Shown here in pieces: positions 35,710-53,741 of a DNA stretch of 64,000 bases (positions within the stretch are counted from its first letter, which is position 1; each line of letters opens with the position of its first letter). Source of the stretch: a bacterium (GTDB lineage: Bacteria > Patescibacteriota > Minisyncoccia > UBA6257 > 02-FULL-45-10c); NCBI GenBank assembly GCA_030646915.1, contig JAUSKT010000012.1, positions 4,663-68,662 on the forward strand, in the 5' to 3' direction. Both the position numbers and the translations under genes were made by a program. The notes beneath the pieces were generated by a model. The model searched no databases. It was not told the origin of the DNA and saw only the letters and a list, made by a program, of their open reading frames with translations.

Positions 35710-36777
35710 TTATTCTAAACTAAGGCTATAAAGCTTATTATCGTATCTGTTTTTAAAGAGCAGTTTTCCGCCAGCGAATTCTAGATGTTCAGCGTCAATT
35801 ATGATATCGGAATTTTCTAATAATAATTTTGAAGCCGCAGTGGCTAGGTTTATTTCATACAAATTATCGTCAAAATATACAGATTTTTTAAAATAATCAT
35901 CTGGTAAAAGCACCCCCTCTTTTATAAGTTTTGGAATGGCGCAATAAATTTTTTCCTTTTCCACCAAGCATTTGCTTGGAAGGGTAATAAAAGAAAGGTT
36001 GGTCAGATCATCCCCGGCTTTATTGATAATGCCAGTAACCGGAGAACGATTTTCATTGTGGTTTTTAATGCCGAATTCTCCATTTGGATACCACTTTATC
36101 CACAAACCGGATTGATTCTTTGTAACCGGAACCAGGCTTTTGGTAGACAGATTTAATGACCAGAGCGAAGAAGGTGTATCTGCGCTGGGGGTTTCATATA
36201 GAAGCAAGGTGTCGCCGGAAACCCAATTTAAAACCAAGTCTTTTTGGGTTAATTTTAAAACATCTCTGGTTTTTTGAGTGTCCGGATTAAAAATTTTTAA
36301 TCCCTTATCATCAAGATAAATTATTTCTTGGTTAGTCGGAGACCAATCCGCCGCTGAAATATTAGGCGGCAAAGCCTGCCAATTGTTAGTGGCGGTATTG
36401 AAAATACTGAAGCTGATTGCATCCGGATAATTTAATTTTACCAAAGCTAAAACCCCGCTATTGGAAGCTTTTAAATTATTAAATTTATTAATAGTTTGAG
36501 AATTTACCAATTCTTCTCCGCCAGAGCCAATCTTAATTACTTGCCCTAAGGGATTGAGGTAATAAATAAAATTATTTACCCGATTTACCCAATAATCAGA
36601 GATTTCATTATTAGATAAAAGTTTTAATTTTTGCGGAAGCTCGGTTGGCTGGGTATTTTCGGTATCTGGAGAAATCAGTTTTTTAAATAAATTTTGCCAA
36701 AGAAAATATCCTCCAACGAGTATTCCAAGCGTTATTAAAATTCCTAAACCAGTTTTTAAATATTTTTTCCAGTTCAT
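35710..36777 (-). CDS. Membrane-anchored beta-propeller-like protein (TolB/PD40-like), last gene of the T4SS-like cluster
   Basis: 355 aa with an N-terminal TM helix and a repetitive beta-strand-rich body. Confidence 0.45.
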   Translation of the reverse strand: MNWKKYLKTGLGILITLGILVGGYFLWQNLFKKLISPDTENTQPTELPQKLKLLSNNEISDYWVNRVNNFIYYLNPLGQVIKIGSGGEELVNSQTINKFNNLKASNSGVLALVKLNYPDAISFSIFNTATNNWQALPPNISAADWSPTNQEIIYLDDKGLKIFNPDTQKTRDVLKLTQKDLVLNWVSGDTLLLYETPSADTPSSLWSLNLSTKSLVPVTKNQSGLWIKWYPNGEFGIKNHNENRSPVTGIINKAGDDLTNLSFITLPSKCLVEKEKIYCAIPKLIKEGVLLPDDYFKKSVYFDDNLYEINLATAASKLLLENSDIIIDAEHLEFAGGKLLFKNRYDNKLYSLSLE

Positions 36778-36882
36778 CCCGTTTAGAAAATTAAAATAAA
36801 CGTCTTGTCGACTGAAGACTTCCGATACTGCTCTATAAAATTATTGCTATGTATAAACATATTTATTAATTTTCTAACGGGA
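36777..36882 (-). mobile_element. TIR element, long subfamily A (106 nt), on the start codon of 35710-36777
   Basis: TIRs are intact. Flanks are TGCA/TGAA (3 of 4 match). The internal frame encodes MHPVRKLINMFIHSNNFIEQYRKSSVDKTFILIF. Confidence 0.85.
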
Positions 36883-36888
36883 TGCATA

Positions 36889-38022
36889 CTATTTAATTAC
36901 GCAGCGCCCGCCGTCATCCATAGAATAACCTTTATCAATGTCACAAACTGAACAATCAGATCCATAACGGCCAGTAGAACAAGTTAAGCAGACAATTTTT
37001 GATTTATTTTCGCCATTCACGATAACTGACACCTGCATACTTGTTGAACAAGCGCTGGCGTGTTCTGGATTAATTACTTCTCCCGGGACGGGGCTTTGTT
37101 CTTGGCCCGTGCTTTGATCTGTACCTTGATTTCCCCCAGGAAGATTTTCTATATTAATAATTTCTGCGTTTGGGTTTCGTAAGTTTACTAAATCCGGATT
37201 AATCGTATAAAGAACTATATAGGCTCCTAATAATAGCGCCAATCCTAGAATTGCCTGAGTGATTTGATCTTTGGCGTCTTGCTGGTTAGTAATACTTCCG
37301 GCCGACAAAATATACTTTACTGAGCCAAAAATAATAGAACCAAATGCCACAAGGCCGGCAATCATCAGTCCGAATTGATAAAGCCTGGCAATATAACCAG
37401 CTGGAGTCGCAGTTGTTGGACAAGCTCCGCCGGCGATATTGGGGTCGCAAGGAATTGGGACGGAAAGCTCGTATGGTTTTACGGTTCCGCTTATTTTGGG
37501 CAATTCCGGCGCCGTACCTTCTTTAATATCCCCAATTAAGGCATCCTTTTCTGATTTAGCAGCTACGCATGCCTTCATATATTTTCCTTCCCCTAGTGGC
37601 ATATCTATTGGTTGTATATGAGTACTTTCTTTTGGCCAAGTTAGTCCAAATACATCTTTTTCAACTCCAGTTGGACACTTGCCATCTGTCTGGGTAGTCA
37701 CAAAATAAGTTTTTTTATAAGTTTCAGGAATTTTACTGACGCTGAACGGAACCTCAATTTTGACTTGGCTGGCATCATCAATCTTTGTCCAAATAGTATT
37801 GCCATTATCGGACGGGATTGGGCAACTCTTTTCTTCACCTACTATAATCACTGGGATTGGATTTCTATCCAACCATTTTCCATTTTTATCCTGGGCGTAG
37901 CATTTTGTTTCAGCAAAAACTACCGTCATGGGCTGAATTAAAATAAATCCAGTTAATAAAATCACCGCCCAAAGTTTTTTATTTATGATGTTTATGTTTT
38001 GATGTTGCATTTTATTTAACAA
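36889..38022 (-). CDS. Secreted Cys-rich protein with an embedded T4SS-pilin-like (TrbC/VirB2-type) two-helix domain
   Basis: 377 aa with a signal/TM at the N-terminus. The central hairpin of two hydrophobic helices (LMIAGLVAFGSIIFGSVKYILSAG...AILGLALLLGAYIVLYTI) follows the CPR T4SS pilin pattern. Confidence 0.5.
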   Translation of the reverse strand: MLNKMQHQNINIINKKLWAVILLTGFILIQPMTVVFAETKCYAQDKNGKWLDRNPIPVIIVGEEKSCPIPSDNGNTIWTKIDDASQVKIEVPFSVSKIPETYKKTYFVTTQTDGKCPTGVEKDVFGLTWPKESTHIQPIDMPLGEGKYMKACVAAKSEKDALIGDIKEGTAPELPKISGTVKPYELSVPIPCDPNIAGGACPTTATPAGYIARLYQFGLMIAGLVAFGSIIFGSVKYILSAGSITNQQDAKDQITQAILGLALLLGAYIVLYTINPDLVNLRNPNAEIINIENLPGGNQGTDQSTGQEQSPVPGEVINPEHASACSTSMQVSVIVNGENKSKIVCLTCSTGRYGSDCSVCDIDKGYSMDDGGRCVIK

Positions 38023-38713
38023 TTAAATTTAAACTTTTTCCGGCCAACTCCAGCTGATTAAAAACATTTTGAATTGTGGCGCCGACACTAAGTTCGGTTT
38101 TAATTGGCGTTCCCTGGGAATTTAAATCAAGCTCCAATATTTCCGGATTTTCCGCAAAGCCGGAGACCTTTTTTCCGTTTAAAGACCAAGAAAAATTCAA
38201 ATTTTTTAAATTATTCACATTAAAAAAGTATGGCTGGGCGACAATTCTGCGCAAGCCGGTTCTAATTTCTTTATAAGGGACCTTCGCATCAATTACCACG
38301 CTTGGGCTGGCAACTGGGATGGAAAATAAATAATCAAGGTCGTTGCCCTTATAACCAACAGTTATTCTTATTAATTGGCTAGTTCCGCCGGATTTGATTT
38401 CTTGGAATTTTATTGATTTTAATCCAGTTCCAGAAGATATTAATTGTTCGTCTTGATACCACCGGATATTGCTGGCGGATAAATCTACCACTTTATTTTT
38501 ATCAATTAAATCAAAACCGGCCTCAATAAAGCTATTTTTAGTTGGAAAAATTTTGCCAAGATAATTTGCCGGCACATAACTGCTGGCTTTCCAAGAAACT
38601 AAAAATTCCGGAGTAGTTTGGGCGGAAGCACTAATAAGTAAAAAGCAAAAAGTCAAAAGTAGAAATAAGATTAAGCCAAGAATTATTTTAAATTTTATAC
38701 TTTGAGTTTGCAT
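38012..38713 (-). CDS. Hypothetical secreted protein (T4SS-like cluster)
   Basis: 233 aa with an N-terminal signal peptide. Overlaps the downstream gene by 11 nt. Confidence 0.5.
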   Translation of the reverse strand: MQTQSIKFKIILGLILFLLLTFCFLLISASAQTTPEFLVSWKASSYVPANYLGKIFPTKNSFIEAGFDLIDKNKVVDLSASNIRWYQDEQLISSGTGLKSIKFQEIKSGGTSQLIRITVGYKGNDLDYLFSIPVASPSVVIDAKVPYKEIRTGLRRIVAQPYFFNVNNLKNLNFSWSLNGKKVSGFAENPEILELDLNSQGTPIKTELSVGATIQNVFNQLELAGKSLNLIVK

Positions 38714-39079
38714 TTATTTTATCGGTTTAGTAAATTTAGTTGCTTTTCCAACCGCCTCTTTTGCTTTTGGCGGGAGGTTGTCTTCTACTATAGTAGCGAT
38801 TATTGCGAGAGTATAAAACGGAAGGGCATTAAGAATGGGTATAAGCTCGCCAATGCCTCCACCCAAAAGCCATTTAACACTCACCCCCTTCATATTAAGC
38901 CAAAAAAGCAGTATTAACCAAATGGCAATGCCACAAAACCAAGCAATTATGGGGAACATAACACCAACCAAAGGAATGGCTAGGCCGGCAATCCCAGCGA
39001 CTCCGGACACATCAGCTATTACTGCAAGAATAAGCATAAACATTCCCTCAACAACATTAATTTTTGAATTTTTCTCCAT
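38714..39079 (-). CDS. Small polytopic membrane protein (T4SS-like cluster)
   Basis: 121 aa with 3-4 TM helices. Abuts the next gene with no gap. Confidence 0.5.
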   Translation of the reverse strand: MEKNSKINVVEGMFMLILAVIADVSGVAGIAGLAIPLVGVMFPIIAWFCGIAIWLILLFWLNMKGVSVKWLLGGGIGELIPILNALPFYTLAIIATIVEDNLPPKAKEAVGKATKFTKPIK

Positions 39080-39148
39080 ATGTAAAATTCCTAATTTCTA
39101 AATTTTAAATATTTCATTAGGAATTAGATATTAGGTATTAGAAATTAT

Positions 39149-40864
39149 TTATCCCCTTTGTTCCAATATTTGTTCGGGCTTGGTGGTGACAATTTTATCT
39201 TCAAGATAAGAGGCTATAACTTGGATTGCCACATGATTTAATCCGGCAAAAAACAGCCCCTCCCCAATTTTTGCTTCCAAGAGAAGGCTTTTTTCTCCCT
39301 CGGTTAAATTAAAAGTTTTAGCAACCATATCAATCATTGCCGGGGCCTGTTTTAAAAGAAGCTGTAAAGATGAGTTGGTAATAATCGGCCGGCCATATGG
39401 AGATTTTAAGAAATCTTCCACATCTTGAGTAATAGTAGTTACGCCCATAAAATATTTCCGGCATCGTTTTACCAATCCAAATAAGAAAGTGGCGCCATCT
39501 TCATGTTTCATAATTACCCAAGCTTCATCAATAACCAGCACTCGTTTTTTAAGATTGGCGCGGATTAAGTTCCAGATGAAATTCAAAACAATATACATTG
39601 CAATCGGCCGGAGTTCGTCTTCCAGGTCTCGGATAGAAAAAACAATCAAACGATTTTTAATATCCACATTAGTCGGTTGATTGGTAAATCCTCCATAGCT
39701 GCCTTGGGTATATTTATATAATCTTTCCGCAAGTCCCCGCCCGCCCTCCATATTTTCCATAACTTTTTGGAGGTCTTCTAAAAGCGGAGGCGCGGCATTA
39801 GAAAAATCTTTTCCGGGAATAATATCGTGGGAAGCGTAAGTTTCTGAAAGCGCCCTGTCTAAAATCGCATCTTCTTCGGGAGTAATTTTTCCAAGCATTA
39901 TTTTTAAAAGTCCGGCTAAGTTTACGATATGGGAACGAAGAACATCACTAGGATCTTCGTCTGTAGGAATTATCGGAATATCAAAAGGATTGACGTGGTG
40001 ATCAGATGCTAAAGAAATTTTAAAATAGCTTCCGCCGACGGCGGCAGTAAGATTTTCATATTCATTTTCCGGATCAATAACAATGACATCTATTCCAAGC
40101 ATCAAAAGCCTTAAAATTTCCAGTTTAGTGGCATAAGATTTTCCACTTCCAGATTTGGCGAAAATCACCATATTGGCATTTTCTAAAGAAAATCGGTCGA
40201 AAATTACAAGCGTATTATTAAGCCGGTTAATGCCATACATAAGGCCGTCATTTGAAGTAAGTTCAGAGGAGGTAAAGGGAAAGACAGAAGAAAGCGGGCC
40301 GGAATTCAATGGTGAATGGATTAATAATTTATCTTGGCCGATAGGCAGAGTTGATCCAAAGCCTTCTAATTGTTGAAAAAGCGCCGGTTTGACATAGATC
40401 AGGCGGCTTTCGAGTAAAGAGGTTATTTTATTTTCTAATTTATGGAGAGCTTCTATAGTATCGGCATAAACAGTGATATAGACGCCGACATTAAATAAAT
40501 GTTCTCTTGATTGCTGTAAAGAATCCCGCAAAGATTCAATGTCTTGAAAGGCGGTTTCTAGCATAGGATCGCGCACCATTCCCTTCTCCTGCCTTTCAAT
40601 TACTTGAGATTCTACTTGAGCAGCCTTTTTACGGAGTCTTTTAAGGGCCATTGGCGTTTCTACTGGATGAATAAAGATGGAAATATCCAGAAGTTCCGGC
40701 ATATCAATAATTCCGGAAAACCAGCCAGTGGCCAAATATCTGGGATAAGTAAAAATGAAAATAGTTTTTACAAACTTATCTCCAAGTTTTAAATAATTGG
40801 AATTCACTTCCAGCGCCGGTGGCGCAATTGCATTGATTAAATTTTTATTTTGTTCTTCAGCCAT
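39149..40864 (-). CDS. virB4: VirB4/TrbE/PrgJ-type conjugation/T4SS ATPase
   Basis: 571 aa with Walker A AKSGSGKSY, Walker B VLVIDEAW and a C-terminal TTITQDVEDF region. Confidence 0.8.
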   Translation of the reverse strand: MAEEQNKNLINAIAPPALEVNSNYLKLGDKFVKTIFIFTYPRYLATGWFSGIIDMPELLDISIFIHPVETPMALKRLRKKAAQVESQVIERQEKGMVRDPMLETAFQDIESLRDSLQQSREHLFNVGVYITVYADTIEALHKLENKITSLLESRLIYVKPALFQQLEGFGSTLPIGQDKLLIHSPLNSGPLSSVFPFTSSELTSNDGLMYGINRLNNTLVIFDRFSLENANMVIFAKSGSGKSYATKLEILRLLMLGIDVIVIDPENEYENLTAAVGGSYFKISLASDHHVNPFDIPIIPTDEDPSDVLRSHIVNLAGLLKIMLGKITPEEDAILDRALSETYASHDIIPGKDFSNAAPPLLEDLQKVMENMEGGRGLAERLYKYTQGSYGGFTNQPTNVDIKNRLIVFSIRDLEDELRPIAMYIVLNFIWNLIRANLKKRVLVIDEAWVIMKHEDGATFLFGLVKRCRKYFMGVTTITQDVEDFLKSPYGRPIITNSSLQLLLKQAPAMIDMVAKTFNLTEGEKSLLLEAKIGEGLFFAGLNHVAIQVIASYLEDKIVTTKPEQILEQRG

Positions 40865-40968
40865 CCCGTTAGAAAATTAAATTAAACATCTTGCCGACTA
40901 AAGACTTCCGATATTGCTCTATAAAATTTTGGTTTAGTTTAAACATATTTATTAATTTTCTAACGGGA
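40864..40968 (-). mobile_element. TIR element, long subfamily A (105 nt), on the virB4 start codon; supplies the stop codon of the upstream gene
   Basis: TIRs are intact and no flanking duplication is seen. The TAG of ORF 40960-41631 (40960-40962) lies inside the element terminus cccgTTAGaaaa. Confidence 0.85.
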
Positions 40969-41631
40969 TTCTTCTCCGCCTATTTCCACTCCTCTTTTTT
41001 CGGTGGTGGCTGGATTATAAAGATTATAAAAAAGTTCAATTAATTCATCGTCGTTTAAGGGGACGGCTCGGAGGCCAATTTGATTTAAACCGTCAATTAC
41101 TTGATCTACTCTTTGATCGAGCTGTTCCTGGATTTCTTTAAGATTTTCTTTTTGAGCTTCGCCCTCACCGGCGCTTTTAGATTTGAACCAGCCGGTGATT
41201 TTTTCCGCGACATCCAGCCCGGCCTGGGGAATTTGGATTGGATCGTAAGGCACCACCAAAAAAAACCTCTTTTGCATAATGGCATTTTGAGAAACAAAAG
41301 CTTTGATGAATTCCCTGTATTCCACGATTTGATTCCGCAAAAGCTCGTTTTCTTCCTGGGTTTCCCGCTCTTCAAGCTTGGAAAGATACTCCTCTATATT
41401 TAATTTTCTGGAATGGATAAAAATTTGAATCGAGAAATCCAGAGAGTTTAAAAACCCCTGAAAGGCATAAGTAATTATTCCCTGCTCTTCTTCGGATTTC
41501 AGGGCAAAATTAGTGCCGGAAACTAAAAGGATTTTTCTAAGCGTTCCGCTTTTTAATTTAATTACCCCATCTTCTATCGATTGGATATCGATAAATTCTT
41601 GTGTAGGCAATGATTCAGATTTTTGCATCAT
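40960..41631 (-). CDS. Hypothetical soluble protein (T4SS-like cluster; weak resemblance to VirB4 N-terminal domains)
   Basis: 223 aa. The pattern GTLRKILLVSGTNFALKSEEEQ...IQIFIH parallels the N-terminal part of the following VirB4. Confidence 0.5.
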   Translation of the reverse strand: MMQKSESLPTQEFIDIQSIEDGVIKLKSGTLRKILLVSGTNFALKSEEEQGIITYAFQGFLNSLDFSIQIFIHSRKLNIEEYLSKLEERETQEENELLRNQIVEYREFIKAFVSQNAIMQKRFFLVVPYDPIQIPQAGLDVAEKITGWFKSKSAGEGEAQKENLKEIQEQLDQRVDQVIDGLNQIGLRAVPLNDDELIELFYNLYNPATTEKRGVEIGGEESR

Positions 41632-41645
41632 AAGCTTATTATATA

Positions 41646-42161
41646 TTATCTATAGTCTACTCTTTTAGCTATTTCCCTTTCTCCGGTGATTTTCCGCATC
41701 ATTTCAAAGCGTTCCTTGCTGCTTTTTTCTCGGTCAGTGATTGCTGGGGCGAAAGCTTTTTCTCTTTTTGGAACCGGCTGTTTGCTGGTTTTTAATTGAT
41801 CCCAAAGATTATCAAGCAGCGATTTCGCCTGAGTTATTTTAAATCCGCCGGTTTTTAATTTCGGTTCAGCTATTTTGGGAGCAGCCTCCCTTCTCCAGAG
41901 ATAAAATCTTGGCTTCCAATAAAAATTAAAAGCCGCAAACACGATTATTGATAATGGCCGCCCATTTACTTTTATAAAGGCAAAAGATAAAGAAATAACA
42001 GCCAATACGAAAGTTATTAATATCCAAAGCCAGAGCTGTAAAAAGAAGAAAAGAAAAAAACTTATTCCGCCCGCAGTTGCAACGTATAAAAACTGCTTCA
42101 GGGTAAGCGGTCCAATAATCCTGTCTTCGGTTTCTATAAATTGCGGGACTTGAAAGTTCAT
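41646..42161 (-). CDS. PrgI/VirB3-like membrane protein
   Basis: 171 aa with an N-terminal VPQFIETEDRIIGPLTLKQF followed by two TM helices, the PrgI family pattern. Confidence 0.6.
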   Translation of the reverse strand: MNFQVPQFIETEDRIIGPLTLKQFLYVATAGGISFFLFFFLQLWLWILITFVLAVISLSFAFIKVNGRPLSIIVFAAFNFYWKPRFYLWRREAAPKIAEPKLKTGGFKITQAKSLLDNLWDQLKTSKQPVPKREKAFAPAITDREKSSKERFEMMRKITGEREIAKRVDYR

Positions 42162-42268
42162 CCCGTTAGAAAAATAAATTATAACGCCTTACGACTAACA
42201 GGTTTTCTATAATGCAATTATAAAATTTTGAATTATCTTTACACATGATTGTTATTTTTCTAACGGGA
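42161..42268 (-). mobile_element. TIR element, long subfamily B (108 nt), on the start codon of 41646-42161
   Basis: TGAA duplication on both sides. The internal frame encodes MNPVRKITIMCKDNSKFYNCIIENLLVVRRYNLFF and ends at a TAA 4 nt before the ATG. Confidence 0.85.
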
Positions 42269-42272
42269 TTCA

Positions 42273-42301
42273 TCCCTTCGTTAGTATTGTCTCTAACGGG
42301 A
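42273..42301 (-). mobile_element. 29-nt stub of a TIR element in tandem with the previous copy
   Basis: Gene sense reads tcccgttagagacaatactaacgaaggga between two further ATGAAT repeats. It is 9 codons long and in frame with the downstream element frame. Confidence 0.6.
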
Positions 42302-42305
42302 TTCA

Positions 42306-43220
42306 TTATTTATTTTTTAAATCAATAATGTTATCGCCTGATTTTTCGAATTTCCGCAAATCAATCCTGTTTTGATCCGCGGGATTTTTTGGCGTTCCAA
42401 TATTAGTAATTGGGGTTCTTGGGCCGCTGTAGTGAACTACTCTAGCAGCCGGATTATTTTCGGGTGTTTCCAGTCTTACTGATACTGCCTTAGAAGCAGA
42501 TTTTTTTTCTTCAGAAGCCGGCCGCGAATAGTTTTGAATTTTAATAGAAAGATCCGGCCTAGCATTAAAAGTTGGCTTAGGGGAAGAAACTTCTGTTTCT
42601 TGATGTAAGATAAATGGAGAAGATGGCGCTTCCAAAGATTGGAGATCAATTTTAGCTTCCTCTTTTTTAGGAGCAAGAGATGGCTCTAAAAAATCTTTAA
42701 ATGATTTTTGTACGCTAGCTTGTCCTAGTGATGAGGCTGGTCCCGTTAGAGACTCCGCCCGCGCTTGCGCGCCCGAAGGGCCTATGGGGCGGGCTGTCTC
42801 TAACGGGATGGCTGCTGATTGTGTCGCTGGTTCAGTTGCAGGTTTTTGCGCGGCAGAAGCTGATCCTGGCTTGCCAAAATAAATTAATTTTACATCCACG
42901 CCAACATCCCGCCTTAATTCATTTTCAATTGGTTTTAAAATTTTATTTTCAATATCTTCGGCGATGGATTTTGCGGTTGTAAAACTAACCATAAGTTCGT
43001 GACTTAGGGCATTTATAAACTCCGTAGGTTCAATATCTTGGGTTACAAGCCTAAATATTAGCTTCGGTATAATTATTCCCCGTTCATTCTTTATTCCCAG
43101 TCTTTGGTTTATTTCAGTAACTAGATAAGTAGTTTGTAGGGAAGAAAGCCGCTCTTTAACGTTTGGGGGCAATGACTCAAATGCAGCCCCCAAATTTTTA
43201 AATTCTTTAGTGTCGTCCAT
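42306..43220 (-). CDS. Hypothetical protein with Ala/Ser/Pro-rich linker (T4SS-like cluster), carrying an in-frame repeat insertion
   Basis: 304-aa ORF. A 22-codon GC-rich insert lies at 42742-42807. Confidence 0.5.
   Translation of the reverse strand: MDDTKEFKNLGAAFESLPPNVKERLSSLQTTYLVTEINQRLGIKNERGIIIPKLIFRLVTQDIEPTEFINALSHELMVSFTTAKSIAEDIENKILKPIENELRRDVGVDVKLIYFGKPGSASAAQKPATEPATQSAAIPLETARPIGPSGAQARAESLTGPASSLGQASVQKSFKDFLEPSLAPKKEEAKIDLQSLEAPSSPFILHQETEVSSPKPTFNARPDLSIKIQNYSRPASEEKKSASKAVSVRLETPENNPAARVVHYSGPRTPITNIGTPKNPADQNRIDLRKFEKSGDNIIDLKNK
42741..42808 (-). mobile_element. TIR element, short GC-rich form (68 nt), in frame inside 42306-43220
   Basis: tcccgttagagac...gtctctaacggga with a TGG duplication. 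It is read in a different frame from the other intragenic copies (IPLETARPIGPSGAQARAESLTG). Confidence 0.75.
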
Positions 43221-43223
43221 GGT

Positions 43224-45107
43224 TTATAAATTTATGACTTCTACAAAGTCTCCTGGCTCAGTATAAGATTGAAGAGCAACATTATTTTTAATAAACTCCC
43301 TTTTCTCATTTAATGAAGTCAACGGCCCCCTTCTTTGGTCTTTATCATTTATTTGTGCGACGTCTACTATTGCTTTCTTAAGCGCCCTGACTATAGCCAC
43401 TTTTTGTTCATTAGTGCCAAATTTAGTTATTTGTTCTATATGGCCAGTGCTTAAACTTAAGAATACTTCAGGATTTTCTAGCGCTTTTGCCGAAATGTCA
43501 TCTGCCTCTTTAACTTTTATTTTTTCTACTATTTTTTTAATGCCCCCCCCTATTCGTTTTGCCAAATCCGGCCTTGCCTTTGTTATTTCTTTATCAGTTC
43601 CAAATTTTTGGGCGATTTTCATTAATTCAGTAATTCGATCATCGCTGATTTTAATATTTGGACTGCCTTCAATAATTCCTTTCTCTCCAAGGGCTGCGGC
43701 AATTGCTGCGGTTTTAGCAGGATTAGTTAGGGCAGTTGTGCTATTTGCTAAAGAAGCTAAGCCATCAGGAGATAAATTACTAAATCCTTTTTTATAATTG
43801 GCGACATCTTCTTTTGCCGTTGTAGTGGCGTACTCATTAATTTTTTGGCCCAGCGTTGAAAGTCCAGTTGAAAACAGGGGCACTGCTCGGCTTTGGGCCA
43901 GATAAGACCCAGCTCTCTGTAAATAACTTTCTTTCTTTTCTGCTGGATTAGCTCCAAGATTAACCGCCCTATCCCTTATCCAACTTCCAACTCCTCCACC
44001 TACATATTTTCCAGCCCCAATCGGTGCCCCTATAATCATATTTTTTGCTCCTTGCGCCGCTTGCATAGTTAACGCTGCGCCTTCAATTCCCATATCATTT
44101 GCCACTTTTAAGCCGATACTTAAAAGTCCAATTACCGCGATCATTTGGCCGATAACTTCTGGAGCATTTGCCTGGAGGGGTAAAAATTGTTCTGCGCCTG
44201 GTATCGAAACATTGGTTACCGCGCTAGTTCCTTTTTTATCTACTAGCGCCAGAGCAAGATAAACAAATAAAGAAGTTGCCGGAGCAAACCAGACCCATTT
44301 GAAAAATTCGCCCCACCATTTACTCCAGCTGCCCGCGGTTTCCGGCCAGATCCAAAGCAGGCAGGCAATCGGCATTATAACCAGTAAAATATTCAGCATT
44401 ACATATCTTATAAAAAGCATTAAAGAGAGTCCCATGAGAGAAATGCCCGCGATAACGGTAAAAAAGGTTGCAAAAAACATTGAGCCCAGGAAAACTACGA
44501 AAGTATTAAAATCTGTAAGACCGCTGGTTAAATTTCTTAAAGTTTCTACACTACCAGATGGCTGGGTAAGATTTTGAACCCTAAATGCCCCCGCAAGTTC
44601 TGCGCCAAGATTTCCTATATTGCCGCCAGTAGCCTTGCTGATAAAAAAGTCAGTCATTACGCCGGAAAAATCAATAAATACTCCGGCAATCACCAAGCTG
44701 AAATTTACTAGGAGCGCGGCGGCGATTAATTTCCAGAGAGTTTGCTTCATTGCGTAGCTTTCAATCCTAAGAATAGTGGCAAAAGAAATTAAAATTATTG
44801 CAAGAACAAATCCTAAATTGGCAAGATCTCTTGAAATTACCCAGCCTATTTTAACCGTGCTGCTTTGTAAGATATTACTGTTTAAATTTAAAGACCAATT
44901 AGCTAAAGTGCCGCCAAATTGGACAAAAACTCCCCCAACATAGCCAATTAAATAAGTGATGACGGACGCCCCCTTAGAAAAGAAAGTCAAAGATGCGCCT
45001 TCTAAAAAGCTCATTTCTGCAAAGGCTGGCCGAACAATTAACAATGTTAAAACTACAACAGCCAGAGCTATAAGAAAGAATTTTTGTTTATTGTGGATTA
45101 TCGTCAT
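43224..45107 (-). CDS. VirB6/TrbL-like polytopic membrane protein with a soluble C-terminal domain
   Basis: 627 aa with a signal/TM, about 7 further TM helices, and then a hydrophilic tail of about 230 aa. Confidence 0.5.
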   Translation of the reverse strand: MTIIHNKQKFFLIALAVVVLTLLIVRPAFAEMSFLEGASLTFFSKGASVITYLIGYVGGVFVQFGGTLANWSLNLNSNILQSSTVKIGWVISRDLANLGFVLAIILISFATILRIESYAMKQTLWKLIAAALLVNFSLVIAGVFIDFSGVMTDFFISKATGGNIGNLGAELAGAFRVQNLTQPSGSVETLRNLTSGLTDFNTFVVFLGSMFFATFFTVIAGISLMGLSLMLFIRYVMLNILLVIMPIACLLWIWPETAGSWSKWWGEFFKWVWFAPATSLFVYLALALVDKKGTSAVTNVSIPGAEQFLPLQANAPEVIGQMIAVIGLLSIGLKVANDMGIEGAALTMQAAQGAKNMIIGAPIGAGKYVGGGVGSWIRDRAVNLGANPAEKKESYLQRAGSYLAQSRAVPLFSTGLSTLGQKINEYATTTAKEDVANYKKGFSNLSPDGLASLANSTTALTNPAKTAAIAAALGEKGIIEGSPNIKISDDRITELMKIAQKFGTDKEITKARPDLAKRIGGGIKKIVEKIKVKEADDISAKALENPEVFLSLSTGHIEQITKFGTNEQKVAIVRALKKAIVDVAQINDKDQRRGPLTSLNEKREFIKNNVALQSYTEPGDFVEVINL

Positions 45108-45138
45108 AATTTTCCAATATTATTTAAACCGATGGCGT

Positions 45139-46581
45139 TTACGGGCAGGAGCTTTGGGCGCTTGGCAATTTTGCTTCCACGTCAGTTTTAATTTCATCTC
45201 TTTCTGCTTCGGCATCAGTTAATAATTTTTCCGCAGCTAACCCATCTAAAATTGGCTGGAGATTTGAAAATTGGGAAGCAAGTAAAAGAGAATCAGTATT
45301 TTCCGGATCGCTAAGATTGTCCACTGCTGTTTGCAGCTGGTCTAGCGCGCTTTGATTGTTATCAAATTCTTCATTTAACGCGGCGAGAGTGGCTTCTTCA
45401 ATTGACCTGTCAGTAATATTTGGAGGCAGGGTAGTGCAGTTCTCTATCGCGTTAACTAATTGATTTTGTAAATTCAGAGATTCAGTTATAAATTCCTGCG
45501 CTTTTTGCCTTGGTTCCAATGAAGTATTGATTTGAGTTAACATCGAGAATTTATCATTTTGATTTGAGGCATTATTTGCAATCTGCAATCTTGAGCAAGC
45601 AATAAATGCATCGCCAGTTAAGCCGGCGCACGGCGAAGAAAGAGTTGTTTTTGCCGGCGGCTTACTTAGGTCTTGGAGCCAGCTGATTCCTTGCTTGATA
45701 ACAAATTGATTAATTGCCGCGTTGGTAATGGCGGTAACATAAGTTGCAAAACGTTGGGCGCCGATAATTCGGTCAATTGGCGTTTTAATTGCAACAGTTT
45801 TTGCTGCCTCACCAACTATTCCTCCTGGAGTAGTAGTTACACAATGCGTTCCGTCTGGATCACATTTTTTAAAATTAAGAAATCCACCTCCCGCCATTGC
45901 TTCATTTTGAGCTGCTGATTTTGCATCAGCTTTTTTAGTCTCTAGTTCATCAAGAGCAATTAAGGTTGCTCCATAAAAGTTATTTACCGGCCTCCATGAT
46001 TCTTGATAAGCAATCCAGCCTCCTTTTTGAAAATCCTGGTAAAAATTTTCAATATTTTCAGTGATATCATCTAGCGTGCAAGTAATTTTGTTTTCGAAAT
46101 CCGTAACCGGCAAAAGCGCCAGCTGAATCTGAAGATTAAACGGCTTACACAAAACCCCTTTGCCGAGTTGCTGGGCGAATAATCCTACCGCTTTTTGCTC
46201 TGCGTCTTTCAGATAAGCATCCCAATCCACAACAAAGCTTCCTTTTCCGCCATTTTGAATCCAGCGGATCATTTGATTTACGATTTGATCCAGAACCGCA
46301 CTCCGAAGAGCTTCAAGGGCAGCTTCTGTGGCAAGAGTTCCCAACTCTTTTATCCATGTGCCATAAGTATTGAGATTAATCGCTGTTTGTTCAAAGCTTT
46401 GTTTTGGAATAGCAGGGATAGATAAGTTACTGAAAGCTACAAAATTAGGATCAGTAATGGAATTAATATTTGAACTAAATTGGGCCAATGCAGCTTTATT
46501 TTCAAAAAGAAAAGAAATTGGCGAATAAATTACCGAAGTTGCTACCAATAAGCTTAATATTTTAGAAATATTTTTTTTCAT
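45139..46581 (-). CDS. Hypothetical secreted protein (T4SS-like cluster)
   Basis: 480 aa with a signal peptide and a helical C-terminal part. Confidence 0.5.
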   Translation of the reverse strand: MKKNISKILSLLVATSVIYSPISFLFENKAALAQFSSNINSITDPNFVAFSNLSIPAIPKQSFEQTAINLNTYGTWIKELGTLATEAALEALRSAVLDQIVNQMIRWIQNGGKGSFVVDWDAYLKDAEQKAVGLFAQQLGKGVLCKPFNLQIQLALLPVTDFENKITCTLDDITENIENFYQDFQKGGWIAYQESWRPVNNFYGATLIALDELETKKADAKSAAQNEAMAGGGFLNFKKCDPDGTHCVTTTPGGIVGEAAKTVAIKTPIDRIIGAQRFATYVTAITNAAINQFVIKQGISWLQDLSKPPAKTTLSSPCAGLTGDAFIACSRLQIANNASNQNDKFSMLTQINTSLEPRQKAQEFITESLNLQNQLVNAIENCTTLPPNITDRSIEEATLAALNEEFDNNQSALDQLQTAVDNLSDPENTDSLLLASQFSNLQPILDGLAAEKLLTDAEAERDEIKTDVEAKLPSAQSSCP

Positions 46582-46584
46582 AAA

Positions 46585-47400
46585 TTATCCGTTAATTCCG
46601 GACTTCTTAATAAAAATTCCCAATTCTTCGCTTAAAGCCGTAAATTCTTTTTGCAATCCACCCAATTCTTGAGTAGCTAGAATTGCCACCATCGGATCTT
46701 CTTGGTAATTTTTGATGTTTTTATAAATATTGGCGCTAGTTCCCAAAAGCCCCATTTCCTTTTTATGTATAGCAAGAACCGAAGAAGGAACTCCTATTTT
46801 TTTAAATTCATCAAAACTAGATTGATAAATATTCGCTAAAATTTCGAAGGTTTTTGTATTAACGCTAGACGGGTCTGTGAAAATTTCAGGCGGAAATTTT
46901 CCCGCAGCATCATCAATGATTTTATTAAAAGCTAAAAGATAATTTATAAGCGCAGCCTTGCTATTGTCAGTAGAAATTTTTAAATCACTATTTTGGATTA
47001 TCGGCCGGAGAGATTTTGGATCAAAGTTTTTTTGGGCTTCAGTGATTAAATCATTGGAAATTTGATCCGGGTCAGGAGTATTAAGCCATGGTTCTCCGTC
47101 TAAAATTTCCGGACCATTGGGATTTGCCTCCACAATAGTTTGGGCAAGTTTGTTTGTAAATAAAGTGGTAAGATTTTTTGTTTCTTGGATTGAAGCCTGG
47201 GAAAGATTAGTCAATTTTTCAGTAGAGCCGGGGGTTTCTTGGATAATTTGATTTTGAGCAAGCTCTGGAGGTTTTGGAGTCGGATTTTGATTTAAAACCT
47301 GGGACTGATTAAGCCTATTATTATTTTGAATAACAAAAACCGCCCCGGCGATCCCGAGAGATATAATCGCGGTCACGGTAAAAGTTTTTATTAAACCCAT
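46585..47400 (-). CDS. Hypothetical membrane-anchored protein, first gene of the T4SS-like cluster
   Basis: 271 aa with a single N-terminal TM helix. Confidence 0.5.
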   Translation of the reverse strand: MGLIKTFTVTAIISLGIAGAVFVIQNNNRLNQSQVLNQNPTPKPPELAQNQIIQETPGSTEKLTNLSQASIQETKNLTTLFTNKLAQTIVEANPNGPEILDGEPWLNTPDPDQISNDLITEAQKNFDPKSLRPIIQNSDLKISTDNSKAALINYLLAFNKIIDDAAGKFPPEIFTDPSSVNTKTFEILANIYQSSFDEFKKIGVPSSVLAIHKKEMGLLGTSANIYKNIKNYQEDPMVAILATQELGGLQKEFTALSEELGIFIKKSGING

Positions 47401-47489
47401 TTTGCAGCTTCTTTATTATAAGTTATAAAAAAGAAGCCTAATTAGATTATACAGCCTTTTATTTATGGGTACTAGCCTAGTTAGTGGAT

Positions 47490-47695
47490 AAATGGAGGGC
47501 GTTCGCTATCTTATCTGCCTACCGGCACCGGCGTCGCTCTGCTCCTGCGGCAGAGCGCGCCTACCCCTCGGCGCTAAAACCGAGCACATAAAATTTATGT
47601 GCTCGGACCAAGCTTTTAGCGCCTCCGTAGTTGTCGCACGGCAGATAAATAGCTCACTTAGGCAGGTGTTGGCGAGAGAGTTGGTTGAGCGGAAT
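47490..47695. other. GC-rich highly structured intergenic segment (possible ncRNA or leader)
   Basis: Outer stem gctatcttatctgcc/ggcagataaatagc. Inner hairpins are cgctctgc/gcagagcg and ggcgctaaaa-ccgagcac...gtgctcgg-ttttagcgcc. Its 3' block gttggcgagagagttggttgagcg recurs (reverse complement) at 51812-51835. Confidence 0.5.
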
Positions 47696-47700
47696 TGTAG

Positions 47701-48543
47701 TTATCGGAAAATATTAGCCAGAGACTTTATTTGTTCCAGTGATAAATTTTGCGGACGATCTAGGGGGTTGATATTCAGAAATTGCAGGCTTTTTTTAATA
47801 TCTTCTTCTTTGGTTTTAAGACCAGTCCTAAGGTTATTAAAGATTGTTTTTCTCGGTTGTTTAAAAAGAATGTGGATTAATTTGTAGTAATTTTGCTGTA
47901 GTTGTCTGTGGTTATTTGTAGTTGTTTGTGGTTTTGTCGTTAGTTTAATTACTGCAGAATCTACTTCCGGCGGCGGATTAAAATCCGCCGGTTTTAAGCT
48001 AAAAAGTATTTTAGGTTCTGCCCAGAATTGGACAGCAGCTGCCAGCAGATTCATCCCGTTAGAGGCAGAGGCGCGCTGCGGGCCCTCGCGGCCTCTAACG
48101 GGATTCATTCTCCGGGGTTGGGAAACAATTCTTTCCGCAACTTCTTTTTGAATCATTAAAACAGAAATATTAGGCTTATTATTTAATTCACTTAAAACCC
48201 TTAGCAGTTTACCGGTAATATAGTAGGGAATGTTTCCTACAAGTTTAAAACTTGAAGAATCAAGTTTAAAGCAAATTTTTGACAATTCTTTTAGGGCATC
48301 TCCGTGGATAACTTCTATTTTTTCTTCATGTTTAATAAGTTTTACCGCAAGATCTCGGTCTTTTTCAATTGCAATTAATTTGCAGCCAACCTTTTTACAT
48401 TCTTCTAAAAGCGGAAAAGTCAGCGCTCCATCGCCTGGACCAATTTCAATAATTGTTTCTCCGGATTTTAAATCTAAATCAGCAATTATTTTTTTAATTG
48501 CAGATTTATTTGTAAGAAAATGCTGGCCTAATTGTTTATTCAT
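47701..48543 (-). CDS. rsmA: 16S rRNA (adenine1518/1519-N6)-dimethyltransferase RsmA/KsgA with an in-frame repeat insertion
   Basis: 280 aa with LGQHFL, the SAM motif EIGPGDGALT and NIPYYIT. An 18-codon insertion lies at 48049-48102. Confidence 0.9.
   Translation of the reverse strand: MNKQLGQHFLTNKSAIKKIIADLDLKSGETIIEIGPGDGALTFPLLEECKKVGCKLIAIEKDRDLAVKLIKHEEKIEVIHGDALKELSKICFKLDSSSFKLVGNIPYYITGKLLRVLSELNNKPNISVLMIQKEVAERIVSQPRRMNPVRGREGPQRASASNGMNLLAAAVQFWAEPKILFSLKPADFNPPPEVDSAVIKLTTKPQTTTNNHRQLQQNYYKLIHILFKQPRKTIFNNLRTGLKTKEEDIKKSLQFLNINPLDRPQNLSLEQIKSLANIFR
48054..48103 (-). mobile_element. TIR element, short GC-rich form (50 nt), in frame inside rsmA
   Basis: Flanked by the direct repeat ATGAAT (gene sense; 48049-48054 and 48103-48108). 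Translated as PVRGREGPQRASASNG. Confidence 0.85.
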
Positions 48544-48665
48544 CCCGTTAGAGACAGGTCATCTTTAGATGACCGTAACTCGGCCGCCTAAACGACTCCT
48601 GACGATTAATTATTGATTCTGATTTTATATATATATTAAACATAGTTTAGTTGTCTCTAACGGGA
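48543..48665 (-). mobile_element. TIR element, long subfamily C (123 nt), on the rsmA start codon
   Basis: Ends tcccgttagagac...gtctctaacggga with TGAA duplications. The internal frame has an early TAA at codon 8, then an in-frame ATG leading to the terminal TAA. Confidence 0.85.
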
Positions 48666-48676: not shown

Positions 48677-50470
48677 TTACTCAATATAAATTGTTTCATC
48701 GTCCCAATCGGCATCCCTGGTTCCATAAGAAGTTATTTTTTTAAATTCAATTAATTCTGGGGGTATTTCTCCTAAAAATCTGGATGGCAGATTATAAAAA
48801 CTTATATATAAATTTTGTCTGGCTCTGGTCATGGCAACATACATCAATCGGCGCTCCTCTTCTATGTCGTGGCTTTTAAAGAAAGATCGTTCGTGCGGCA
48901 AAAGTCCGTCATTGGTTCCGATAATAAATACTTGGTTGAACTCCAGTCCTTTTGCGAGATGTATGGTCATCAATTTTACCGCATTTTCCTGCAATTTCGG
49001 CCGCCCATCCAGGCTTGATACCAAGGCAACTTGCTCTAAAAATTCATGGGCATCTTTGAAAGACGAAGCGAAATTAATCAATTCCCGGATGTTTTCTCTC
49101 CGTTCCTCCGGATTTTTAAAGTGTTTTTCCAGATATTCCAGATAATTGGTGTTTTCCAGAAAAAAATTTATTAATTCCACGATAGATAATTCTCCGGCAA
49201 GCCTCGGCAGTTCCGAAAGGAGGGCTGCGTTTTGGGGCTTGGTAAAAGTTTTTTTAAGCCGTTCAATGCTGGCGGCATCTTTCGGATTAAAGGCGTACCG
49301 GAGGCCGGCGATGATATCTTTGATTTCTTTTCTTGCGTAGAATTTTAATCCGCCGAAAATTTCGTAAGGAATTCCGCTTTGAATGAAGGCTTGTTCAATT
49401 GCCCGGGATTGCGCATTGGTTCTGTAAAGGATTGCTATTTCTTTTACGGTTTCGCCATTTTTAATGAGCTCTAAAATTTTATCTGCGACTCCAAACGCCT
49501 CTTCTTCGGCACTTGAAAATGCGGATAATTTTATTAATTCCCCTTCTTGATTTTGGGTCCAGAGGTCTTTTGGTTTTTGCAGCTTATTATTTTTAATCAG
49601 TTCGGAAGCGGCTCGGATTATATTTTTAGTGGATCGATAATTTTCTTCCAGTTTTATTACGGTTGCATCCCAATCTTTTTCAAAATTAAGAAAATTTCGG
49701 AAATCAGATCCTCGGAAAGCATAAATGCTTTGGGCGTCGTCCCCGATTACAAAAAGATTTTTATGCTTTCCGGCAAGCAGTTTAATCAAAAGGTACTGGC
49801 TGGTATTAACGTCCTGGAATTCATCTACTAAAATATGCTGCCATTTATTCTGGTATTTTTCCAAAATCTCTTTATCAGATTGGAAAATTTTAACTGGTTT
49901 TTCAATCAAGTCGTCAAAATCAAAAGCGTTGCTTTTTAAAAGCTCATCTTCATATTTTTTGAAAGCGGTTATTACTACTTTGTCGTAATGGCTTTCAGAT
50001 GCTAAATCCTCAATTTCTAAAAGTTCATTTTTAATTTGAGAAATTTTAGCCATTACGGTTAGTGGGCTAAAACGGTCTTTTGATAAATTCATTTCGAGCA
50101 GAATTTTTTTCAATAAGCTTAGGGCGTCATCTTCATCAAAAATTGTGAAGTTTTTAGCGCGCCCGACTTTCTCCGCTTCTTCTTTTAAAATTTGAACTCC
50201 TAGGGAGTGGAAGGTGCCAATAAATGGACTAATGGCAAGTGTTTTATGGCTGGCGACCCTGCTTCTCATTTCTTTCGCTGCTTTATTAGTAAAGGTAATG
50301 GCGATAATATTTTCCGGTTTTATGCCATTTTCCAATAAATAAATTAATCGGTTGGTAAGAGTTTTAGTTTTTCCTGATCCGGCGCCGGCGGCAATTAAAA
50401 TCGGGCCCCCGCTATGCGCGGCAGCCCTTTTTTGAACCTCATTTAATTCAGTAGTTTTTTTAGTATTCAT
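48677..50470 (-). CDS. UvrD/PcrA/Rep-family DNA helicase (short form)
   Basis: 597 aa with motifs I (AGAGSGKT), Ia, II (VDEFQD), III, V and VI (VAMTRAR). Confidence 0.9.
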   Translation of the reverse strand: MNTKKTTELNEVQKRAAAHSGGPILIAAGAGSGKTKTLTNRLIYLLENGIKPENIIAITFTNKAAKEMRSRVASHKTLAISPFIGTFHSLGVQILKEEAEKVGRAKNFTIFDEDDALSLLKKILLEMNLSKDRFSPLTVMAKISQIKNELLEIEDLASESHYDKVVITAFKKYEDELLKSNAFDFDDLIEKPVKIFQSDKEILEKYQNKWQHILVDEFQDVNTSQYLLIKLLAGKHKNLFVIGDDAQSIYAFRGSDFRNFLNFEKDWDATVIKLEENYRSTKNIIRAASELIKNNKLQKPKDLWTQNQEGELIKLSAFSSAEEEAFGVADKILELIKNGETVKEIAILYRTNAQSRAIEQAFIQSGIPYEIFGGLKFYARKEIKDIIAGLRYAFNPKDAASIERLKKTFTKPQNAALLSELPRLAGELSIVELINFFLENTNYLEYLEKHFKNPEERRENIRELINFASSFKDAHEFLEQVALVSSLDGRPKLQENAVKLMTIHLAKGLEFNQVFIIGTNDGLLPHERSFFKSHDIEEERRLMYVAMTRARQNLYISFYNLPSRFLGEIPPELIEFKKITSYGTRDADWDDETIYIE

Positions 50471-50561: not shown

Positions 50562-51539
50562 ATGACGGTTGTTTTTGTTGTGGCGATGTCTGCCTTTAAT
50601 TTAATCTTTATTGGGTATCTTAATCAATCAACAAGGATATCCGGAACGAGTCTTTTAAATCAAGATTTATTTCAGGAAAATTTAACTTATACCGGACTTG
50701 CTTCGGCAGAGGGATTGGGAATGGTGGATTCCAGTTTTGGCGGCGAAGCTAAAGAAACAAGATTTATTATTATTGAAAGCGATTCGCTTTTAAATTCAGG
50801 AAATCCCTTAAGTAACATCTTGCCTACCAGGGAAGGGCTTATAATTTATAAAATTCAAAAAGGCGACAATCTTTCCAGGATTGCCGCGAACTTTGGAATT
50901 TCTTTAAATACTATTTTGTGGGCGAATAATGATTTGAAAGTTAATTCCTTAAAGCCGGGACAGGAAATTGTTATTTTGCCGGTAACCGGCATTTTGCACC
51001 AAGTTCAGGAAGAAGAGACTTTAGAAAGCATCTCCGCTAAATATGAAGTTGCTTTGCAAAGAATTTTAAATGCCAATCCTGTTTTAGTTCCAGCAAAACT
51101 TTCGGCCGGCGCTACGATTATTATTCCCGATTCCAGTCCGATCCGCAATAATCAATCCAGCTTGACCAAGCTCCCGAATCTCGCAGGTTATTTTTCAATC
51201 CCGACTACCGGCTGGAATTGGGGCCAGCTCCATAATTATAATGCCGTGGATATTGCCAATGCCTGCGGTACGCCGATTTATGCGGCCGCAGAAGGATTAG
51301 TAGTGGAAGAATCTTCTGGCGGCTGGGGAGAGGGATATGGAACTTATATTGTTATTGAACATCCGAATGGCACAAAAACTAAATATGGCCATAATCAGAA
51401 AAATTTAGTTTCGGTCGGAGATTATGTTTTGAAGGGCGATCAAATCGGCACCATTGGAAATACTGGCTTAACTCACGGCCCGACCGGCTGTCATCTGCAT
51501 TTCGAAGTAAAAGGAGCTAAGAACCCTTTTTCTAAATAA
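50562..51539 (+). CDS. LysM-domain M23 family peptidoglycan endopeptidase
   Basis: 325 aa with an N-terminal TM, two LysM repeats (YKIQKGDNLSRIA, HQVQEEETLESIS) and M23 motifs (HLHFEV). Confidence 0.88.
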   Translation: MTVVFVVAMSAFNLIFIGYLNQSTRISGTSLLNQDLFQENLTYTGLASAEGLGMVDSSFGGEAKETRFIIIESDSLLNSGNPLSNILPTREGLIIYKIQKGDNLSRIAANFGISLNTILWANNDLKVNSLKPGQEIVILPVTGILHQVQEEETLESISAKYEVALQRILNANPVLVPAKLSAGATIIIPDSSPIRNNQSSLTKLPNLAGYFSIPTTGWNWGQLHNYNAVDIANACGTPIYAAAEGLVVEESSGGWGEGYGTYIVIEHPNGTKTKYGHNQKNLVSVGDYVLKGDQIGTIGNTGLTHGPTGCHLHFEVKGAKNPFSK

Positions 51540-51540
51540 T

Positions 51541-52062: not shown

Positions 52063-52074
52063 AAAGATAATTTA

Positions 52075-53718: not shown

Positions 53719-53741
53719 TTCTGTCCTGGCGCCGGTTACCC

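Follow-up and report, generated by a model that had tools for sequence, protein, structure and literature searches.

Gene content of the cluster

The 64,000-nucleotide stretch of contig JAUSKT010000012.1 analyzed here (the window) carries eleven intact, co-directional open reading frames (ORFs) on the minus strand at positions 35710–47400, and this block is the chromosomal, origin-adjacent type IV secretion system (T4SS) cluster of the ultra-small Patescibacteria, or candidate phyla radiation (CPR), which probably serves host-cell interaction. The genome belongs to the Parcubacteria (Paceibacteria) group. An earlier note on this DNA had listed eleven tightly packed genes of a T4SS-like cluster, and its coordinates held for every ORF. 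The intergenic gaps are 0–145 nt, with copies of a repeat element filling the longer ones. The ORFs are referred to as g01 to g11 in order of position, g11 being the first gene of the block and g01 the last. The same-strand run extends beyond the block through ksgA (47701–48543) and a UvrD/PcrA helicase gene (48677–50470). Two of the block proteins, Q7S73_01460 and Q7S73_01465, are recorded in NCBI as hypothetical proteins.

The VirB4-type ATPase proposed in the note is encoded by g05 (39149–40864, 571 aa), which matches the NCBIfam model NF045971 (VirB4-like, CD1110 family) with a score of 384 bits (cut-off 325; E = 1e-114) and covers profile positions 184–732. The protein also matches the Pfam families P-loop_TraG (E = 1.5e-27), AAA_10, and CagE_TrbE_VirB. 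Its translation contains a Walker A motif (KSGSGKS) and a Walker B motif (VLVIDEAW), and the ATPase is predicted to be catalytically intact. Comparison with 80 CPR loci gave VirB4 identities of 46–89%, the top value being found in metagenome-assembled genomes of Candidatus Harrisonbacteria, the closest named relatives, and by sequence the protein appears related to the mating pair formation FATA (MPF-FATA) class. The adjacent 223-aa ORF g06 (40960–41631), which the note had left unassigned, aligns to positions 2–117 of NF045971 and 10–184 of TIGR00929 and matches the TrsD/TraD model NF041427 (E = 2e-6). It therefore represents the TrsD-like N-terminal domain of VirB4, which is encoded in two pieces. 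Of 65 related loci, 58 keep the two parts as distinct ORFs and the remaining 7 have them fused, indicating that the split is ancestral and not a pseudogene lesion. One repeat copy lies at the junction of g06 and g05, and the possibility that it had split or pseudogenized VirB4 was rejected, as nearly all of the 58 loci with separate ORFs are without the element. The fused ORF of ∼780–795 aa is found in loci L008, L014, L015, L017, L020, L048, and L061; either the split or fused state changed more than once or some of these cases are assembly or frameshift differences.

The two-helix membrane protein g07 (41646–42161, 171 aa) scores 35.1 bits (E = 2e-8) with Pfam PrgI (PF12666), above the gathering score of 27, and its two hydrophobic segments at residues 25–63 form the hairpin expected of PrgI/VirB3. 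Orthologues of g07 adjoin VirB4 in 62 loci. The polytopic protein g09 (43224–45107, 627 aa) has about seven hydrophobic segments and is of the "extended" VirB6/TrbL-like type with a helical C-terminal domain. A precomputed Pfam match to TrbL_3 (PF19590) exists for an identical protein. When only the window protein was scanned with the current Pfam, no match resulted, and TrbL/VirB6 (PF04610) matches 5 of the 37 positional orthologues. An AlphaFold2 model of g09 built with 106 homologues has a predicted local distance difference test score (pLDDT) of 84.6, and in a Foldseek comparison with the PDB the R388 stalk complex (TrwJ/VirB5–TrwI/VirB6) supplied its best four matching chains, with probabilities of 0.99–1.0, template modeling scores by target of 0.46–0.50, and E-values of 0.1–0.3. 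From their lengths of 260–272 residues we take the matched chains to be TrwI/VirB6. The PrgI-like and VirB6/TrbL-like readings of the earlier note are borne out by these matches.

The exported protein g02 (36889–38022, 377 aa) is rich in cysteine (12 Cys); its N terminus is signal-like, and residues 217–272 hold two hydrophobic helices. The VirB2-like pilin hairpin (residues 211–272) that the note had recognized within it sits between variable N- and C-terminal extensions, and among orthologues conservation is confined to this pilin core. The T4SS_pilin family (PF18895) matches 42 of 45 positional orthologues (best E = 2.7e-9), and TrbC (PF04956) matches one. The last gene of the block, g01 (35710–36777, 355 aa), encodes a protein with an N-terminal anchor in the form of a single hydrophobic segment at residues 9–27; its orthologue profile finds TolB propellers among PDB sequences with an E-value of 3e-11, in agreement with the TolB-like propeller proposed earlier. 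Orthologues of g01 are present in 46 loci, including those of Doudnabacteria.

The remaining five proteins are conserved members without a recognized family. Pfam assigned no family to g11, g10, g08, g04, or g03, either for the window proteins or for any of their orthologues, and neither did NCBIfam for the window proteins g10, g08, g04, and g03. Profiles built from the orthologues of g03, g08, g10, and g11 gave no credible match among PDB sequences. The first gene, g11 (46585–47400, 271 aa), encodes an N-terminal membrane anchor or signal (hydrophobic segment at residues 6–24) followed by a domain that is probably helical, and has orthologues at the same position in 29 loci. The secreted or anchored protein g10 (45139–46581, 480 aa, 8 Cys) has an N-domain with the invariant residues C145, C168, N200, G233, and P252 and a C-terminal helical bundle. 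Its AlphaFold2 model is poor (pLDDT 55 from a 15-sequence alignment) and confident only for the helices at 330–480, and a role for g10 could not be assigned by Foldseek, where this model gave generic helical bundles only. The protein g08 (42306–43220, 304 aa) has no membrane segment and is probably cytoplasmic, with a conserved N-domain of ∼115 aa, a Pro-rich linker, and C-terminal RVVHYS..TP and VDLR motifs. The conserved g04 (38714–39079, 121 aa) is a small polytopic membrane protein. The secreted protein g03 (38012–38713, 233 aa), with orthologues in 46 loci and invariant residues W41, W85, G97, P133, and W176, is probably beta-rich.

Conservation and gene order

A scan of one genome per species yielded 80 loci with VirB4 relatives, which were then compared with all window proteins by tblastn. 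The synteny comparison with CPR loci that the note had proposed gave a shared order of uvrD-ksgA-g11-g10-VirB6-g08-PrgI-TrsD-VirB4-g04-g03-pilin-propeller, followed first by jag-yidC-rnpA, encoded on the other strand, and next by dnaA-dnaN. The full order and orientation are common to about 40 species-level genomes of Paceibacteria, Harrisonbacteria, and Jorgensenbacteria, and the TrsD-VirB4-PrgI-VirB6 core is also present in Doudnabacteria, Moranbacteria, and Microgenomates. The likeness to clusters of CPR episymbionts remarked on in the note is correct according to the published work (PMC12102498, PMC10633639), and the arrangement is lineage-wide, not peculiar to this genome. In the 38 loci that contain dnaA, dnaN, and yidC, the median identity to the window protein is 72% for VirB4, 62% for DnaA, and 55% for DnaN, and VirB4 identity exceeds DnaA identity in every one of the 38. 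The exported cluster proteins show 31–42% identity in the same comparison. Because the order is conserved in about 40 species and VirB4 is more conserved than DnaA throughout, the cluster appears to be a core machine that is inherited vertically under strong constraint while its surface parts evolve fast, and not a mobile element or a decaying remnant.

A decaying remnant of an integrated conjugative element (ICE), left after loss of the relaxase and coupling protein, would agree with a VirB4 family nearest to ICE and plasmid MPF-FATA types (the CD1110 and Mycoplasma ICE models), with a VirB4 encoded in two ORFs, and with the five repeat copies in the block. However, the same order and origin-adjacent site recur across the ∼40 species, the VirB4 split is ancestral and conserved, all ORFs are intact, the ATPase is under stronger conservation than DnaA, and the repeats spare the reading frames. 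No integrase or att-like boundary was found at the block, whose GC content of 0.37–0.41 compared with ∼0.38 in the surroundings shows no compositional break, and the only tyrosine recombinase seen (62264–63214) lies 15 kb away and was judged Xer-like. On the grounds of synteny and conservation the ICE remnant was rejected, and we regard it as extremely improbable.

Position and orientation relative to the replication origin

The note had placed the origin at about 33.6 kb, with the block transcribed against replication. The dnaN and dnaA genes occupy the minus strand at 30.8–33.5 kb, with rnpA-yidC-jag diverging from them. The plus-strand GC skew at third codon positions (GC3 skew) is negative to the left of the origin for both gene orientations (−0.15 and −0.09) and positive to the right for both (+0.07 and +0.08), and the cumulative minimum falls at 30.8–34.3 kb. 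With this minimum, the T4SS block falls in the right replichore and on its lagging strand, head-on to replication, as had been proposed. DnaA boxes (Escherichia coli consensus TTATCCACA, one mismatch allowed) show no clustering in the dnaA-rnpA spacer, and the origin was therefore placed by GC3 skew. To the right of the origin (window positions 33600–64000) 20 of 26 genes are head-on, whereas 25 of the 31 to the left are co-directional; this asymmetry between the two sides is unusual and wider than the T4SS block. The head-on orientation is old, given that other species keep the same gene order. The available text of the published gene-dosage argument is silent on this conserved, head-on and origin-adjacent orientation.

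The 300-bp spacer between ksgA and g11 (47401–47700) is GC-rich. Reading of its sequence shows a terminator-like hairpin after ksgA (CCGAGCACAT...ATGTGCTCGG followed by TTTT), a second GC hairpin, and, about 40 nt before the g11 ATG, the extended −10-like TGTATAAT. Scans with sigma-70 promoter and terminator consensus sequences were not above shuffled expectation, and a comparison of the spacer with Rfam gave a chance-level match only. A 33-nt motif at 47662–47694 is found inverted at 51812–51844, downstream of the peptidase gene described below.

Components not found among the scanned window ORFs

All window ORFs of at least 230 aa outside the cluster, together with some shorter ones, were scanned in addition to the cluster proteins. 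No type IV coupling protein (T4CP), relaxase, or VirB11 was found among the cluster proteins with Pfam and NCBIfam or among the other scanned ORFs, as the note had maintained. The note had held that a failure of the profiles, or a complete conjugative module (relaxase and T4CP) just outside the cluster, would refute its reading; the profiles support VirB4, VirB6, and PrgI, and the scanned flanking ORFs contain neither protein. The sole match to T4SS-DNA_transf is a sub-threshold P-loop inside VirB4 itself (E = 0.044). No relaxase family matched any scanned ORF, and an origin of transfer was not searched for. A T2SSE ATPase encoded at 24544–26220 on the minus strand (558 aa), the sole secretion-type ATPase seen outside the cluster, was considered as a VirB11 candidate and rejected; it matches T2SSE over its full length and is PilB/GspE-like, of the type IV pilus kind. 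Located ∼8 kb left of the origin and adjoined by small plus-strand ORFs at 26333–27909, this gene places type IV pilus machinery near the origin as well.

The cluster contains no lytic transglycosylase, in line with the note. To this can be added a plus-strand gene 3 kb away, at 50562–51539, whose product has the Pfam architecture LysM-LysM-Peptidase_M23 and which holds the same position beside the uvrD-ksgA-T4SS block in at least 16 loci. This peptidase is a candidate functional substitute for a VirB1-type wall hydrolase. In one of the 45 g02 orthologues a Peptidase_M23 domain is present as well (E = 1.4e-34, in the ORF as called), which hints at a functional link between the pilin-domain protein and M23 hydrolases such as that at 50562–51539. 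The region 51000–55000 has a GC content of 0.44–0.49 compared with ∼0.38 elsewhere; it holds a beta-CASP/RNase J-like gene (52075–53616) and two fully overlapping ORFs on opposite strands (53742–54455 and 53751–54479), of which the minus-strand one is without a Pfam family.

Repeat elements within and around the cluster

Sixteen repeat copies are present in the window. Six lie to the left of the block (1945–2051, 15369–15418, 17874–17944, 21937–22043, 24188–24297, and 35025–35131), five within it (36776–36882, 40864–40968, 42161–42268, 42274–42310, and 42741–42808), and five to the right (48054–48103, 48543–48665, 55759–55881, 58543–58649, and 62452–62501). The note's count of 5 of 16 copies in the block is correct, but its description of the block as heavily colonized is not upheld, as the block makes up 18% of the window and the excess is not significant (binomial P = 0.15), with no gene disrupted. 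The copies share the palindromic termini TCCCGTT(T)AGA...TCTAACGGGA and by sequence appear to form a MITE-like family of palindromic elements (MITE, miniature inverted-repeat transposable element). Long copies are AT-rich, start with ATGRATCCCG, and end with ...CGGGATG, the final ATG being the start codon of the downstream gene; ATGRA(T) looks like the duplicated target of the element. Short GC-rich copies lie in frame inside ksgA, g08, an Fpg/Nei-like gene, and the Xer-like tyrosine recombinase gene. In RNA folding the terminal stems of 18–25 bp take in the AU of the start codon, with z-scores of −4.4 to −5.4.

Within the block, the long copy at the g02/g01 junction (36776–36882) ends in the g01 ATG. 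In the long copy at the TrsD/VirB4 junction (40864–40968) the TAG of the 5′ arm is the TrsD stop codon and the last bases include the VirB4 ATG, and the terminal stem has a folding energy of −30 kcal/mol (z = −4.8). The closest relative, L001, and most other relatives have no repeat at this junction, where their gap is −16 to +50 nt. The g08/PrgI junction (42161–42310) is occupied by a long copy (42161–42268) that ends in the PrgI start codon and a mini copy (42274–42310). The short GC-rich copy at 42741–42808 lies in frame in the g08 linker, where it encodes IPLETARPIGPSGAQARAESLTG; its RNA hairpin has an energy of −45 kcal/mol (z = −5.4), and the insertion is shared with L001. The copy in ksgA adds 18 residues directly before the conserved MNLLAAA motif and is missing from four orthologues, whereas a fifth species has a different copy at the same site. 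No reading frame is interrupted by a repeat copy, and the repeats appear to be later, tolerated insertions that give no sign of decay. They possibly affect translation initiation.

Other Paceibacteria, and Doudnabacteria as well, carry elements that share these termini but differ greatly in their interiors (L008:13604–13722; L024:13735–13842 and 2790–3111; L023:2100–2169 and 15044–15141; L046:17515–17634; L061:16315–16436; L054; L066:17089–17190). The pilin/propeller junction is occupied by copies with different interiors in L008 and L024, and some copies elsewhere lie at the ksgA MNLL site. The distribution suggests target-specific, recurrent insertion of the element over a wide phylogenetic span. 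Palindromic elements placed at start codons or in frame recall the Rickettsia palindromic elements. Among the papers listed in a literature search, none linked CPR bacteria to MITEs or palindromic elements.

Proposed function of the cluster

The cluster is very likely derived from monoderm MPF-FATA-type conjugation machinery that became fixed next to the replication origin and is vertically inherited. By analogy with the R388/VirB paradigm, VirB4 would dock on VirB3 and VirB6 and pull pilin-domain subunits from the membrane, and the subunits would polymerize, with VirB6 as the platform, to give a pilus or conduit across the wall to the host cell. The fast-evolving exported proteins and the propeller would form the wall-spanning, envelope, and host-contact parts, and the nearby LysM-M23 peptidase may open the wall. 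Because neither a T4CP nor a relaxase was found, the system is not considered conjugative. It most likely moves macromolecules between episymbiont and host or only builds a contact pilus, with nucleic-acid import, protein export, and adhesion alone being comparably likely.

One possibility, which we put forward tentatively, is a T4CP-independent conduit that imports host DNA or RNA as a source of nucleotides, as in the ComB system of Helicobacter pylori or the Ced system of Sulfolobales. CPR bacteria are described in the literature as being without nucleotide synthesis. A PNPase gene (58722–60830) and the RNase J-like beta-CASP gene are found in the same window, and the lack of a T4CP or relaxase nearby is also consistent with import. 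The available parts of the Patescibacteria survey propose import of DNA or other macromolecules (PMC12102498), and a 2026 preprint links feeding on host RNA, monophyly of VirB4 and PNPase, and possible T4SS pili (bioRxiv 10.64898/2026.06.21.733656). However, the direction of transport is not readable from the sequence, and the matches of VirB4 to the NCBIfam models CedB and CedD are far under the cut-off. Furthermore, Candidatus Southlakia epibionticum takes up DNA by ComEC, which according to the available texts is dispensable, while the T4SS is essential (PMC12102498, PMC12857230).

A machine that exports effector proteins to the inside or surface of the host, or that assembles only an adhesive pilus without substrate transfer, can likewise be given only a limited chance. 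In the available parts of their paper, Wang et al. suggested protein export or an alternative role from the missing coupling protein and relaxase (PMC10633639), and Bordetella Ptl and Brucella VirB are described in the accessible texts as functioning without a T4CP (PMC12102498, PMC12857230). The low identity of the exported cluster proteins (31–42%) fits host-contact parts. On the other hand, no effector-like or toxin genes were recognized in or next to the cluster, and the known T4CP-less exporters use periplasmic substrates in diderms, for which there is no clear monoderm equivalent.

Several points weigh against reading the block as a host-directed T4SS of the kind proposed above. The sequence data give neither the nature of a substrate nor a direction of transport, and the demonstration of essentiality for host-dependent growth is limited to Saccharibacteria, which belong to another class. 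Six of the eleven proteins (g11, g10, g08, g04, g03, and the TolB-like g01) are without an assignable role. The VirB6 fold match of g09, although top-ranked, is weak by its E-value, and g02 itself scores 20.8 bits with PF18895, under the gathering score of 26.6. No VirB8-like (PrgL/TraM/TcpC) or VirB1-like (PrgK/TrsG) member was recognized within the cluster in Pfam scans of single orthologues and in orthologue-profile PDB searches with g03, g10, and g11. The genome could carry a T4CP gene at another place, outside the 64 kb covered of the 115.8-kb contig.

It is rather unlikely, although conceivable, that g11, g10, g08, g04, g03, and g01 together with the large pilin-domain protein constitute a Paceibacteria-specific envelope-spanning and host-contact module that replaces VirB8, VirB1, and T4CP, and that the cluster represents a distinct T4CP-independent subclass of monoderm T4SS, for example for uptake of host nucleic acids. 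The head-on, origin-proximal placement and the start-codon-sequestering hairpins of the repeats might add lineage-specific control of expression.

The T4SS of Patescibacteria is one of the few candidate machines for the acquisition of host material by episymbionts, and with that of Saccharibacteria a T4SS was for the first time shown to be indispensable for the organism carrying it. The window does not present a new kind of system but provides a complete Paceibacteria example with exact gene boundaries, along with evidence that constraint on the ATPase exceeds that on DnaA and that the exported parts evolve fast. Its novelty resides in the six unassigned members, the conserved head-on orientation, and the palindromic element that targets start codons. 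The six conserved accessory proteins, including the TolB-like propeller, are obvious targets for structural work.

Comparison with known T4SSs

In the VirB and R388 systems pilus biogenesis needs VirB4 and not VirD4. Like the diderm Agrobacterium tumefaciens VirB and R388 Trw systems, the window cluster has a VirB2-type pilin domain and a VirB3–VirB4 inner-membrane module, and the predicted VirB6 fold resembles the R388 stalk chains taken as TrwI. In contrast to these systems, the cluster has no VirB7, VirB9, and VirB10 core, no VirB11 or VirD4, and no recognized VirB5. H. pylori ComB (DNA uptake), Bordetella Ptl, and Brucella VirB also serve non-conjugative functions without a coupling protein; they are diderm systems with VirB7–10 cores, and the cluster is likened to them by function and not by sequence.

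The monoderm MPF-FATA systems (pCF10 Prg/Pcf, pGO1/pSK41 TrsC-TrsD-TrsE, and Clostridioides difficile CTn2) also resemble the cluster. The window VirB4 passes the CD1110-family cut-off, its neighbors include a PrgI-family VirB3 and a polytopic protein of VirB6 type, an outer-membrane core is missing, and the separate TrsD-like N-domain is shared with the pGO1 subclass. Unlike these systems, the cluster has no relaxase, T4CP, or adhesin and no recognizable PrgK/TrsG-type hydrolase or VirB8-like PrgL/TraM, whereas it does contain a VirB2-like pilin, which Gram-positive systems are not known to have. It also differs from plasmid and ICE MPF-FATA systems in its location, which is not on a mobile element but fixed beside the origin in the ∼40 species.

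The closest correspondence is with the T4SS of the Patescibacteria clade. In the available parts of their survey (Microb Genom, PMC12102498), Quinonero-Coronel et al. (2025) assign VirB4 to a distinct clade with affinity to monoderm MPF-FATA, with TrsD homologues abundant beside virB4 and with PrgI/VirB3, VirB6, and VirB2-like pilins present. VirB8 and VirB1 are described there as scarce, T4CP homologues as mostly distant from virB4, and relaxases as almost lacking, and the Paceibacteria system is placed near dnaA, dnaN, rnpA, and ksgA, with VirB1-profile matches carrying M23/LysM associated with virB4. In the window cluster, too, virB4 is accompanied by a separate gene for a TrsD-like protein and, close by, by genes for PrgI/VirB3, VirB6, and a VirB2-like pilin, with no relaxase or adjacent T4CP found among the scanned window ORFs and with dnaA, dnaN, rnpA, and ksgA nearby. 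For S. epibionticum, the accessible portion of Wang et al. (2023, Cell, PMC10633639) reports by transposon sequencing that the T4SS genes SEML1_0006–0019, including a pilin array, are essential for epibiotic growth, and notes that a coupling protein and relaxase are lacking. A 2025 review considers that this essentiality and the possible pili make these systems unique among monoderms (PMC12857230), and the 2026 preprint cited above shows tubular structures, possibly T4SS pili, at the parasite–host interface and a monophyletic VirB4. In contrast to the array of six small pilins reported for S. epibionticum in the available text, the window has one large 377-aa Cys-rich pilin-domain protein. The TolB-like propeller and the five other unassigned members are not named, and the head-on orientation and repeat insertions are not discussed, in the available portions of the two Patescibacteria T4SS papers (PMC12102498, PMC10633639), whose same portions already describe the components of the system, the missing relaxase, and the dnaA-near position. 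Judged by its genes and their arrangement, the cluster appears to fail the defining features of a conjugative element and to have every sequence-testable defining feature of the Patescibacteria-clade T4SS.

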